Of a stretch of DNA of 64,000 bases, positions 44,359-47,469 are shown one piece after another. The translations under genes were made by a program, and so were the position numbers. Origin of the DNA: a virus (Duplodnaviria > Caudoviricetes); IMG/VR virus record IMGVR_UViG_3300032038_000053, positions 1-64,000 of that record; one strand, 5' to 3'. Below the pieces are notes generated by a model. The model ran no database searches, was not told where the DNA came from, and saw nothing but the letters and a program-made list of their open reading frames with translations. How positions within the stretch are numbered: position 1 is the first letter of the stretch; each line of letters starts with the position of its first letter.

Positions 44359-46032
44359 TTATTGTGATGCTTCTATATTATCCCATTGCTTAATGTATTC
44401 GTTTGCAAATGAGATTTCTTTGCCAGTCCAACCAGTCATGATTGCACAACGATAAGCCATGATTGGCATTACAGTATTGTCATAACCAGCTGTCTGAATA
44501 CAAAATACATTCAGCTTTGGATTAATCTTTTTACGATATGTTTGGATTAACTTGTATACATCGATGTGCTGTCTACCGGTAAAACGTGGTCCACATCCAT
44601 ATCCCATCTTTGAATATGCAGCAATATCGGAATGTTCACCATACAATCCACCAGTACCAGCTTGCATATCGGAATAAATAAAGAGATTGTCAATGTGTTC
44701 TTTGTTCTTAATAGCACGCCATAAGTATTTCCAAATACCACCTTCGGTTGCTCCGCCAACATCATCACATTGACCCTTATCAATCTTATGAGCCTGACTC
44801 AGAACACCCTTTCTCTTTGAGATTGGATATGCAATATACCGATCACCAAACTTAACAGCATCCCCTTCATCAGAACAAGCGCATGCCAATACAGCTGACA
44901 GATTGTCAATATTGGCAACACGAACAATTCCATATTCCGATACAAATCTACCCCAAGCAGATCCACTATTATCAGACAGAGCAACTGTTCTACCACTCAG
45001 ATGTGGAAAGTTATCAACGGCAATATCAATGCATTCTTCCAAAGCATCTAAAATCATTTGTTTGTGATTGATCACATCTGTACATTCATCAATCGCTGTA
45101 TAAGCGGATGAATAACGGAACGGGAATTGTTTACCATCTGGAACTCCATCTTTCAGTTTCTGTAAGATACGTTTACAAGTATCCATATCACTGATTTCTT
45201 TGAAGATGTTACGGAGGTTTCTCAATAATGCCATATGACCAATATCAATTGTGTGAAGAATATCAGCCCATGTTGCACCATCGGATCTCAACTGTTCCCA
45301 TGTCTTTTGTTCATTAACCACGTTAACAGTACCAGTCTTCATCAGCTCGTTAATGACTGTTGAATTGGCATGGCATAAACGAACAGTATTGATCATGCCG
45401 ATTTCGAAGTTTTTATATTTGTTAATCTGAACAGGTGATAATGCCTCCAAACGATCTGCCATAGAACGTTTCAAAATAGAAGGCATTTGATTCTTCTTAC
45501 CATCATTCAGCCATAAATAATAAGCAGCTTGCATTGCTGGTTCATCAGGTCTTTTCATTACCTTATATTCTAACTGTCTGAACAAACCAGGATGTGTTTT
45601 GTTGAATTCAGCACGTTTTGGATGAAGTGCTGCACGAACCATGATGACCTGAGGATTCAATCTCATGTAATAAGTATTGCGTAAATGAACTGCCAAACGA
45701 ATTGTCGCTTCATAATCATAATCCAGCGCTTTGTCAATCACATCGGTGAAGAATTCAGTTGCTGTCTTTTTATTGTATTCCGGGAATAATGCATCAGTAA
45801 TCAGATCATCAATCAAATATACGGAATCATGTGAATAATGAAATCCACCACTACTACAATAGAATCCGCCACTACGATAATACTGTGCTTCTCCAAAGAT
45901 GGAAGAAGCTGCAACAAGCTGTAATGTCTGAATGGGATTTAATTTGTAACTAATTCCATTCATAAAGTTTGTTGTAGCACCAAGGGATTCTTCTTTTTTC
46001 TGATTAGAGACTGCTCTTGAAATCTTACTCAT
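44359..46032 (-). CDS. Ro60/Rsr-like TROVE-domain RNA-binding protein with C-terminal vWA domain
   Basis: LAVHLRNTYYMRLNP, KRPDEP, MALLRNLRNI, KQFPFRY, MIDAS-like DNSGS, IYSDMQ. Confidence 0.9.
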   Translation of the reverse strand: MSKISRAVSNQKKEESLGATTNFMNGISYKLNPIQTLQLVAASSIFGEAQYYRSGGFYCSSGGFHYSHDSVYLIDDLITDALFPEYNKKTATEFFTDVIDKALDYDYEATIRLAVHLRNTYYMRLNPQVIMVRAALHPKRAEFNKTHPGLFRQLEYKVMKRPDEPAMQAAYYLWLNDGKKNQMPSILKRSMADRLEALSPVQINKYKNFEIGMINTVRLCHANSTVINELMKTGTVNVVNEQKTWEQLRSDGATWADILHTIDIGHMALLRNLRNIFKEISDMDTCKRILQKLKDGVPDGKQFPFRYSSAYTAIDECTDVINHKQMILDALEECIDIAVDNFPHLSGRTVALSDNSGSAWGRFVSEYGIVRVANIDNLSAVLACACSDEGDAVKFGDRYIAYPISKRKGVLSQAHKIDKGQCDDVGGATEGGIWKYLWRAIKNKEHIDNLFIYSDMQAGTGGLYGEHSDIAAYSKMGYGCGPRFTGRQHIDVYKLIQTYRKKINPKLNVFCIQTAGYDNTVMPIMAYRCAIMTGWTGKEISFANEYIKQWDNIEASQ

Positions 46033-46229: not shown

Positions 46230-46237
46230 CTGGATAT

Positions 46238-46345
46238 GTGTGAGAATGTTGGACCTGTTTCTTGTAGGACTCGAACCCACATAGTTACCTAAACACAGTA
46301 ATGATTAACCATAAATCGAAGTAACAGAGTCCTCTGCTTCACACA
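46238..46345 (-). ncRNA. Y-RNA-like element 1 with tRNA-like D and T arms
   Basis: UGUGUGA-AGCAG-AGGAC ... GUCC-AACAUUC-UCACACA enclosing GAUU-UAUGGUU-AAUC and GUGGG-UUCGAGU-CCUAC. Confidence 0.75.
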
Positions 46346-46346
46346 T

Positions 46347-46383
46347 TGGTCGAAGTGACAGGGCTTGAACCTGCGGCCTCTCG
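46347..46383 (-). pseudogene. 3' half of a split tRNA-Pro
   Basis: CGAG-AGGCC-GCAGG-TTCAAGC-CCTGT-CACTTCG-A-CCA, with no 5' half adjacent. Confidence 0.8.
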
Positions 46384-46404
46384 TTTTGAATATTGTTAAA
46401 TTTA

Positions 46405-46479
46405 TCGGGATAACCCGGATCGAACGGGCACGATGTCCAAATCCCAAATTTGGCGGCCTACCAGTTGGCCCATATCCCG
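46405..46479 (-). tRNA. tRNA-Pro(TGG), intact, no encoded CCA
   Basis: CGGGATA/TATCCCG acceptor, CCAAA-TTTGGGA-TTTGG, GCCCG-TTCGATC-CGGGT; begins 1 nt after the HNH stop codon. Confidence 0.88.
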
Positions 46480-46480
46480 T

Positions 46481-47293
46481 TCAATTTTCTTCATAAAACT
46501 TCCAGTGAAATCCACCAGATGTTTCACATCTATTGTGACAACATTCACCGATATTTGTTCTATCGGCTCCTGTAAATTCAGCTGCTTGTTTTATTAAATT
46601 ATAGATAACACCTGTCTCAACACAAATTACAGGTTTTCTGGTTTTAGCAGTTCGCATTCCAAAACTGTTATTGTCTAATAAAGAAATCCATTCCAAATTC
46701 TTAAGATGATTATGCTCCTTTATCTCATCAATATGATTGATTCCCAGAATTTTCATATCATCTATTGGATTAAATGTTTCCATAACAACTCTGTGTATGC
46801 TAACATTCTTCTCGAACCCAAAATCACATAGTTGAACACGAGAATACCCTTTCTTACTCAAAGCGGGTTTTAATATTATATTATTCCTTAGAGATCTAAT
46901 ACGACCATGATCTGATACCTGATAATTTTCGAAATCTTTTATAGGTCTCCATTCTTCAATATCTTCAACCCATCTCAAATTATCATAATTAGAGTTTCTG
47001 GTGTCACCATCAATATGTTCAATTTTAGCAAAATGATCAACTAATTCTTCAGGTGGAGTAACAAATGCTCTACCAACTAATTCATCTATTGGAAAATATC
47101 TTATATTGAATTCTGGAAATATTGAGTTTCTGGAACGTAATAAAAGTGCTATGAAATCATATCCGTTTGATGAATGATACGATGCACAAACAGGTTCATC
47201 GTCAATATTAGATTCTGTTCGAATTCTACCGTAATTTGATATAAGAAATCCATCAGCAATTTCTGGATGCTGTAATTTTCTCCAAACTTCCAT
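46481..47293 (-). CDS. NUMOD4-HNH homing endonuclease (duplicated module) with C-terminal NUMOD1-like DNA-binding domain
   Basis: Two WR/K..ISNYGRIR / WR..VSDHGRIR modules; second has HR...NHIDEIKEHNHLKNLEW; tail KPVICVETG...AA...NIGECC...GGFHWKF. Confidence 0.9.
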   Translation of the reverse strand: MEVWRKLQHPEIADGFLISNYGRIRTESNIDDEPVCASYHSSNGYDFIALLLRSRNSIFPEFNIRYFPIDELVGRAFVTPPEELVDHFAKIEHIDGDTRNSNYDNLRWVEDIEEWRPIKDFENYQVSDHGRIRSLRNNIILKPALSKKGYSRVQLCDFGFEKNVSIHRVVMETFNPIDDMKILGINHIDEIKEHNHLKNLEWISLLDNNSFGMRTAKTRKPVICVETGVIYNLIKQAAEFTGADRTNIGECCHNRCETSGGFHWKFYEEN

Positions 47294-47338
47294 TTATATT
47301 CACCACCTTTTTGAGATGATATATTATTATTTAAACAA

Positions 47339-47377
47339 GATCCAAATCAAGCACTCTCCCAGCTGAGCTACACCTCG
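47339..47377 (-). pseudogene. 5' half of a split tRNA-Pro(TGG)
   Basis: CGAGGTG-TA-GCTC-AGCTGGGA-GAGT-G-CTTGA-TTTGGA-TC, then breaks off. Confidence 0.8.
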
Positions 47378-47409
47378 AAACAAAACATGCTTCATCACAT
47401 TGCTTTGTA

Positions 47410-47425
47410 ATTATTAGTAATATAT
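47410..47425 (-). promoter_or_regulatory. Putative early promoter upstream of the tRNA-Pro/Y-RNA/TROVE unit
   Basis: ATATATTACTAATAAT contains TATATTAC, recalled as the phiKZ early-promoter motif. Confidence 0.5.
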
Positions 47426-47469
47426 GATGTAAAAATAAAAAATAGATGGGGGCAATTGCCCCCACCAAA

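Follow-up and report, generated by a model that had tools for sequence, protein, structure and literature searches.

Transfer RNA (tRNA) genes are known homing targets in phages, as in the case of SegB of T4 and T6, which cuts inside the tRNA genes of relatives that lack it and is inherited preferentially together with flanking tRNA genes (PMC2330249; PMC13096335). Intron-less homing and marker exclusion have also been described for SegE, SegF, SegG and MobE of T4 (PMC2988022; for MobE, PMC2790892), and group I introns occur in the anticodon loops of bacterial and phage tRNA genes (PMC3984707). Here we describe a locus in which a phage tRNA-Pro(UGG) gene is split in its anticodon arm by a 955-bp insert that carries an HNH nuclease gene and a second, complete tRNA-Pro(UGG). 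The locus lies in a 64-kb stretch (positions 1 to 64,000, hereafter the window) of the IMG/VR virus record IMGVR_UViG_3300032038_000053 (Duplodnaviria; Caudoviricetes), a 77.8-kb record that covers about 29% of the genome, roughly 267 kb, of a giant gut phage. All tRNA and insert coordinates refer to the minus strand of the window, and related contigs are designated by L numbers.

The broken gene, which we call type A, is present as two halves (Table 1), the second of which comprises the 3' strand of the anticodon stem, the variable loop, the T arm, the acceptor strand, the discriminator A and CCA. Joined at the C that they share, the halves are drawn by ARAGORN as a cloverleaf with a 7-bp acceptor stem, a D arm, a 5-bp anticodon stem and a T arm, with an anticodon loop of 6 nt and an encoded CCA. 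A profile of 30 distinct tRNA-Pro genes from related phages matches the halves separately and in complementary register (model positions 1-37, E = 3e-3; model positions 39-74, E = 1.7e-4). In the unedited window, ARAGORN and Rfam find one tRNA-Pro only, the inner one at 46479-46405. The 3' half is 97% identical to a tRNA-Pro of phage Phass-1, and BLAST against GenBank phages returned nothing beyond this 36-bp tRNA match.

Scanning metagenome contigs for an exact pattern of 27 bases of the 5' half turned up a single contig, L155 (63.7 kb); when viral contigs were scanned for exact patterns of the rejoined allele, the 5' half or the inner tRNA, there was no match. L155 belongs to a related phage whose coding flanks are 72-78% identical to those of the window and which has the same order of elements: a small open reading frame (ORF), a terminator, the conserved upstream region, tRNA-Pro, a Y-RNA-like element and a TROVE gene. 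At this locus it carries an uninterrupted type A tRNA-Pro (L155:2648-2723), so the halves in the window are not a chance resemblance. The 5' half lacks one G of the run G35-G37 and is otherwise identical to L155:2648-2687, and the 3' half differs from L155:2687-2723 by a single mismatch, A to G at position 41. Relative to this empty allele, the window thus contains a discrete 955-bp block after tRNA position 40, has lost one loop G and has the change at position 41. The comparison of filled and empty alleles shows that the insertion brought in the nuclease gene and the inner tRNA together, and because the L155 gene is unbroken at the same spot, the block is an insertion and not an intron.

A preliminary description of this DNA had placed the two halves at the same coordinates and had proposed that the insertion destroys the tRNA it entered; the cloverleaf, the uninterrupted copy in L155 and the defective product of joining the halves all support it. 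The anticodon loop that it described as one nucleotide short is indeed a 6-nt loop in the ARAGORN drawing. All stems of this cloverleaf are paired, as it claimed, with one G-U wobble in the anticodon stem that results from the A-to-G change. The broken gene cannot give a normal tRNA.

Table 1. Coordinates of the split tRNA-Pro, its insert and the flanking features in the 64-kb window.
Feature	Coordinates	Strand	Description or basis
5' half of broken type A tRNA-Pro(UGG)	47339..47377	-	acceptor 5' strand, D arm, anticodon stem 5' strand and loop remnant, up to position 40
Insert left end, 45-nt leader	47294..47338	-	purine-rich ribosome-binding box before ATG
Nuclease gene, 270 amino acids	46481..47293	-	NUMOD4+HNH-like module (1-112), then full I-HmuI-like module (113-270)
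Intact tRNA-Pro(UGG), type B, 75 nt	46405..46479	-	ARAGORN; Rfam tRNA, 52.2 bits; starts 1 nt after nuclease stop
Insert right end, 21-nt tail	46384..46404	-	imperfect inverted copy of left junction 47346-47329
3' half of broken type A tRNA-Pro	46347..46383	-	position 40/41 to encoded CCA
Conserved upstream (promoter-like) region of the tRNA-Pro slot	47378..47443	-	just past terminator hairpin of 88-amino-acid gene
Terminator-like hairpin of 88-amino-acid gene	47466-47445	-	hairpin search
First Y-RNA-like element with tRNA-like core	46237..46346	-	directly after CCA of 3' half; Rfam tRNA, 30 bits, at 46325-46256
Ro60-like (TROVE) RNA-binding protein gene	44359..46032	-	Pfam TROVE; PHROG 850 RNA-binding protein, 6e-41

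The insert (47338-46384, 955 bp) consists, in this order, of a leader, the nuclease gene, the intact tRNA-Pro(UGG) and a tail, and the bases belonging to neither the ORF nor the tRNA amount to 67 (45+1+21). The content claimed for it, a NUMOD4-HNH ORF followed 1 nt past its stop by an intact tRNA-Pro(UGG), was confirmed, with both domains above the Pfam cut-offs. A complete isoacceptor lies in the same block as an intact HNH gene that is under selection (see below). The promoter-like motif also claimed for the insert occurs once, does not recur and is unsupported. The leader aligns with that of the related contig L007, and its purine-rich box, 7 nt before the ATG, is a plausible ribosome-binding site judging from the sequence. 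A leader hairpin that would hide this box was not significant and is not conserved in L007, L004 or L148. A sigma-70-like pair of hexamers across the left junction (9/12 matches) was considered and set aside, the region having fewer such sites than its shuffles.

The inner tRNA, which we call type B, has the cloverleaf as its minimum-energy fold and is identical to type A at 43 of 75 positions (57%). The 77.8-kb record contains no other intact tRNA-Pro. The anticodon loop of type B has the same seven bases as that of the target. The divergence that the preliminary description gave to the substitute tRNA is borne out, and its presumed resistance to cleavage belongs to the mechanism considered below. 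CCA is encoded in the broken allele and in those of L151, L152 and L155 but not in type B, for which a CCA-adding enzyme would be needed.

The type A allele is host-like. A stretch of 34 bases, from the anticodon arm to the T stem, has exact matches within tRNA clusters on the chromosomes of 15 bacteria, almost all of them Clostridia or Lachnospiraceae of gut origin (ruminant and other), and the whole gene is identical at 66-67 of 75 positions to the tRNA-Pro(UGG) of these Clostridia-type genomes. This likeness in sequence suggests a Clostridia-type host group. On a more speculative note, the host chromosome would offer an identical site to any nuclease that reads these bases.

The nuclease is encoded by an ORF with a start, a ribosome-binding box and a stop of its own, and this ORF is not embedded in a self-splicing intron or an intein. 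Pfam detects NUMOD4 (1.4e-17) and HNH_3 (7e-8). The C-terminal module (residues 113-270) includes C-terminal DNA-binding helices, as in I-HmuI, and a profile of nine homologues searched against PDB with hmmsearch matched I-HmuI (1U3E) with E = 1.8e-23, residues 114-271 aligning with residues 2-170 of 174. The AlphaFold model (predicted local distance difference test score, pLDDT, 87) had 1U3E as its sole significant PDB match in Foldseek (E = 1e-11, probability 1.0). The NUMOD4+HNH part is duplicated, in diverged form, in residues 1-112 (BLASTP E = 6e-4; Pfam HNH_3 at 91-109), and the strand-helix pattern is repeated across both modules of the model. In both HNH motifs, all nine homologues retain the catalytic His and Asn. 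Among four tRNA-linked nuclease lineages, the ratio of non-synonymous to synonymous substitution rates (dN/dS) is 0.11-0.25, with dS above 1 and synonymous sites saturated, which indicates that the nuclease has been kept by selection and that the clade is old. The protein is therefore a full-length I-HmuI-like enzyme with an extra, duplicated module and under purifying selection; the two modules might allow it to cut both strands instead of nicking.

Only four database clusters contain proteins with at least 62% identity to the nuclease. More distant homologues (up to 51% identity) are ordinary free-standing genes between protein genes, and since none of the 69 viral loci with distant homologues had tRNAs nearby, the link to tRNA appears confined to the clade with at least 62% identity. 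As a separate observation, a homologue with 43% identity (L150:378-1273) starts 28 nt past an intact tRNA-Met gene, so that more distant members of the family also occur beside tRNA genes. On the contig that includes the window but outside the window itself (G000, 75101-75838; L177), a 245-amino-acid ORF encodes a distant HNH paralogue (33% identity over 93 amino acids) with no tRNA nearby.

Besides the window, the same nuclease clade lies behind a broken tRNA-Pro 5' half in three other lineages. Identity to the nuclease of the window is 80% in L007, 63% in L148 and 62% in L004-L006. In L007, L148 and L004, a tRNA-Pro-like 5' half broken in the anticodon loop is followed by a short leader and the nuclease gene. 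Next come an intact tRNA-Pro(UGG), which lies at the nuclease stop codon or overlaps it, and a Y-RNA-like element. No 3' half was found in the sequence available for these three, the contigs of L007 and L148 being about 1 kb long. The 5' halves differ among lineages more than the cassettes do: between the window and L007, identity is about 67% for the 5' half, 88% for the inner tRNA and 80% for the nuclease at the amino acid level, and their anticodon stems are unrelated. In L007, the remnant bases past the loop fit the 3' stem of type A and not the stem of its own 5' half. These bases are few, but they suggest that, at the L007 junction, a recipient tRNA-Pro and a donor already equipped with a type-A-like remnant crossed over within the anticodon loop, which is the outcome expected of break repair with the 5' half as homology arm. 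In L148, the nuclease ORF extends 24 nt into the downstream tRNA-Pro (L148:874-897), with its stop inside the D arm; 5' processing of this tRNA would strip the stop codon from the message.

Two further relatives, L151 and L152, were found through the 88-amino-acid neighbour protein. Their flanks are 96-97% identical to those of the window over about 4 kb on each side, and they have no nuclease gene; the slot between these flanks holds a third intact tRNA-Pro(UGG) allele, identical to type A at 43 of 76 positions. The search for an uninterrupted tRNA-Pro in relatives, proposed in the preliminary description, thus gave the same allele in L155 and intact, nuclease-free tRNA-Pro genes in L151 and L152. 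Homology between the window and L151/L152 stops and resumes precisely at the ends of the tRNA body (47377 and 46354), and no co-conversion tract, in the form of raised divergence beside the slot, was seen in this comparison. Such a pattern means that, in this slot between a conserved upstream region and a conserved Y-RNA-like element, the exchange of tRNA-Pro alleles far outpaces change elsewhere in the genome. The presence of the nuclease at the slot is therefore polymorphic among related genomes, with a definable empty site. A second variable slot lies within a few dozen bases of the tRNA-Pro slot. In relatives whose flanks are 97% identical, about 650 bp of additional inserted sequence with small ORFs separates the terminator of the 88-amino-acid gene from the tRNA upstream region (L152, 4300-4950; L153, 1860-2489), and this sequence is not the same in the two contigs.

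The tail of the insert is identical to the reverse complement of 47346-47329 at 15 of 18 positions with one indel, and the copy includes the anticodon-loop remnant. A match this good was reached by 1.1% of shuffles and by 0.09% of sequence windows across the 64 kb. When the junctions are co-folded, the ends of the insert extend the anticodon stem by about 16 bp (7+5+4 bp), and the folding-energy test is weak. The inverted copy is absent from the related cassettes, which also show no 3' half. It may be the scar of a hop, the right end having been closed by template switching and not by homologous pairing; alternatively, it may be a processing helix or have arisen by chance.

We consider that the most probable explanation, with a probability of about 0.75, is a free-standing (intron-less) homing-endonuclease cassette that was inserted into the anticodon arm of a resident, host-like tRNA-Pro(UGG) and replaced it. 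Under this mechanism, the nuclease would act on co-infecting phages without the cassette, nicking or cutting their host-type tRNA-Pro(UGG) genes close to the anticodon, and the break would be repaired from the cassette-bearing genome, with the retained 5' half as left homology arm and the inner tRNA or the downstream Y-RNA region as right arm. The inner tRNA, given its 57% identity to the target, would escape cutting and keep proline decoding intact. The nuclease gene would probably be transcribed from the old tRNA promoter, and processing of the inner tRNA by ribonucleases P and Z, 1 nt past the stop codon, would set the 3' end of the message. A bolder form of this proposal, which we hold only tentatively, is a natural 'cleave-and-rescue' drive acting on a tRNA: it would cut host-type tRNA-Pro(UGG) in rival phages and possibly in the host chromosome, secure its own decoding through the bundled tRNA that the nuclease cannot recognize, and use the 5' half as left arm to enter differing tRNA-Pro alleles, with the tail as a template-switch scar.

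Several observations weigh against the homing cassette. The downstream tRNA is 69-88% identical to that of the window across lineages, that of L148 being different again, which argues that nuclease and tRNA are not a fixed mobile unit; the intact tRNA in L007, L148 and L004 could be a pre-existing neighbour and not cargo, and the window is the only case found with both within one clean insertion. No consistent sequence difference separates the 'target' halves from the 'immune' inner tRNAs. The closest relatives, with 96-97% identical flanks, carry the third allele and not the empty type A, so alleles must have been swapped at the slot at least one further time, in either direction. Finally, between the window and L004 the nuclease is 62% identical and the TROVE protein 57%, values that fit old vertical inheritance as well.

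This last point leads to the possibility that the arrangement goes back to a single ancestral insertion, no longer homing or since domesticated, and has been inherited passively, the differences among phages at the slot being due to ordinary recombination through the conserved promoter and Y-RNA flanks. The similar divergence of nuclease and TROVE proteins and the dS above 1 between the four nuclease lineages would be expected, the 5' remnants of L004 and L007 have decayed (a shortened D loop and a lost G19), and conservation of the slot flanks extends to phages with 72-78% identity elsewhere, so that any allele could move by general recombination. However, the halves in the window are almost identical to a living allele, that of L155, which makes the insertion recent relative to the nuclease family. 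The purifying selection on the nuclease with both active-site motifs kept, the greater divergence of 5' halves than of cassettes, the L007 junction that looks like an anticodon-loop crossover and the presence/absence polymorphism among phages with 96-97% identical flanks also speak against passive inheritance, which we regard as unlikely. Even less likely as a full account is a device for anti-defence or competition, in which the divergent tRNA-Pro escapes a host tRNA nuclease and the HNH enzyme either stimulates the tRNA region to recombine or be amplified, as SegB does, or cuts the tRNA-Pro genes of the host. There is a precedent in SegB, which drives the amplification of tRNA genes against tRNA-cleaving defences (PMC13096335); the locus sits in a dense RNA island, and the broken allele shares 34 bases with the Clostridia-type chromosomal tRNA-Pro(UGG), to be compared with only 57% identity for the replacement. 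Nevertheless, there is no tandem amplification, each tRNA being present in one copy, and nucleases directed at the loop would not be evaded, as the replacement has the same seven loop bases as the target. Such a role is compatible with homing and does not exclude it.

Were the insert an intron, a ribozyme, or proteins such as an endonuclease with an RtcB-type ligase, would splice the halves into a working tRNA-Pro, and the nuclease and inner tRNA would be cargo. The anticodon arm is the classic position of tRNA introns, pairing between the two ends of the insert can lengthen the anticodon stem by the 16 bp or so mentioned above, and the locus adjoins a Ro60/Y-RNA module, a kind of module with frequent links to RtcB in bacteria. 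Against this, no Rfam intron family matches at E<=1, and the 67 spare bases of the insert leave no room for a ribozyme core. Group I introns are preceded by a U at the 5' splice site and end in G, and group II introns follow GUGYG...AY; here the boundaries read C/T at the left end and A/C at the right, with C and not U as the last exon base and A and not G as the last base of the insert, so that the ends fit neither pattern. The junction helix has only 1-nt irregularities, without 3-nt bulges or a bulge-helix-bulge, and ligation would give a tRNA with a 6-nt loop, missing one G of G35-G37 (at the G37 position) relative to the intact allele. In L007, L148 and L004, no 3' half is seen after the cassette in the available sequence, and there would be nothing to splice. 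RtcB was not found in the 77.8-kb record, that is, in 29% of the genome. An intron is thus very improbable, and the preliminary description was right in treating the insertion as intron-free. It would also be conceivable that the contig is a chimera joining two tRNA-Pro alleles through shared tRNA sequence, as short repeats such as tRNA genes can be mis-joined in metagenome assemblies and several alleles coexist in the phage population. But the junctions do not lie at shared sequence, an independent ENA contig of 267 kb (L008) has exactly this arrangement, a further contig from another sample carries the identical nuclease, and analogous layouts occur in four other assemblies, which reduces the probability of an artefact to almost nil.

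The flanks of the slot have features of their own. The segment 47443-47342 is about 98% identical to L155, though the coding flanks are only 72-78% identical, and it is kept in L151 and L152; its part upstream of the tRNA could, judging from sequence conservation, act as a promoter. On the other side, the junction between tRNA and Y-RNA-like element found after the 3' half also follows the intact tRNA in L155, L151 and L152. In two of these relatives, ARAGORN calls the Y-RNA-like element, which precedes the Ro60/TROVE gene, a tRNA-Asn(GTT) (L152:5134-5206 and L155:2743-2814). The TROVE gene served as anchor for finding relatives: a search of viral contigs with the single protein gave no match, and a two-sequence profile gave 70 related viral loci. 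A tRNA-Pro(UGG) lies 98-820 nt upstream of TROVE in L010, L069, L012, L073, L059, L076, L051, L004, L151, L152 and L155. The tRNA-Pro and the Ro60/Y-RNA module seem to be linked in many otherwise diverse phages.

If the homing cassette is the correct explanation, the locus would represent a self-insuring selfish element and a compact natural analogue of engineered cleave-and-rescue gene drives. The filled, empty and alternative alleles of one slot offer an unusually clean system in which to test cleavage and homing. Elements of this kind would help to explain the fast turnover of phage tRNA genes and their divergence from host tRNAs, and the scars of such events may be what is annotated in large phages as tRNA halves or 'tRNA genes with long introns'. 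Should the nuclease read the host-type tRNA gene, it would be a new site-specific enzyme with a universal, conserved target.

The closest structural relative of the nuclease is I-HmuI of Bacillus phage SPO1 (PDB 1U3E), an HNH nicking homing endonuclease that residues 113-270 match over its full length and with which, by profile and predicted fold, they share the HNH motif, the strands of NUMOD4 and the DNA-binding helices at the C terminus. The coding sequence of I-HmuI lies within a self-splicing group I intron in a DNA polymerase gene, and the enzyme has one HNH module. In contrast, the protein of the window is not encoded in an intron, has an extra N-terminal NUMOD4+HNH-like module and presumably targets a tRNA gene. 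In its setting, the locus resembles that of SegB, which is likewise an intron-free nuclease gene among phage tRNA genes (PMC2330249; PMC13096335). However, SegB is a GIY-YIG enzyme and not an HNH enzyme, and it recognizes a T-arm motif of many tRNAs, whereas the breakpoints in the window lie in the anticodon arm of one isoacceptor; segB also lies between tRNA genes, with no broken target halves around it, and not inside a tRNA gene. The free-standing T4 endonucleases share with the cassette a gene placed beside a presumed-resistant variant of the target, and they spread, as the cassette is presumed to, by break repair with co-conversion of the flanks. In the T4 cases the gene is intergenic and the target of the donor is whole, while in the window the target is split and the insert contains a second, complete isoacceptor. 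Group I introns in tRNA genes have the same site of insertion, the anticodon arm, and some carry homing endonuclease genes, but the insert described here has no ribozyme or splice-site features and does not restore the tRNA, the gene being inactivated and functionally replaced. In the literature searched, we found no paper on a phage tRNA gene split by a homing endonuclease or on a tRNA inside a tRNA intron in huge phages. What sets this locus apart from the known systems is that the nuclease gene lies inside a tRNA gene of which both halves are present, with a complete replacement tRNA in the same insert.

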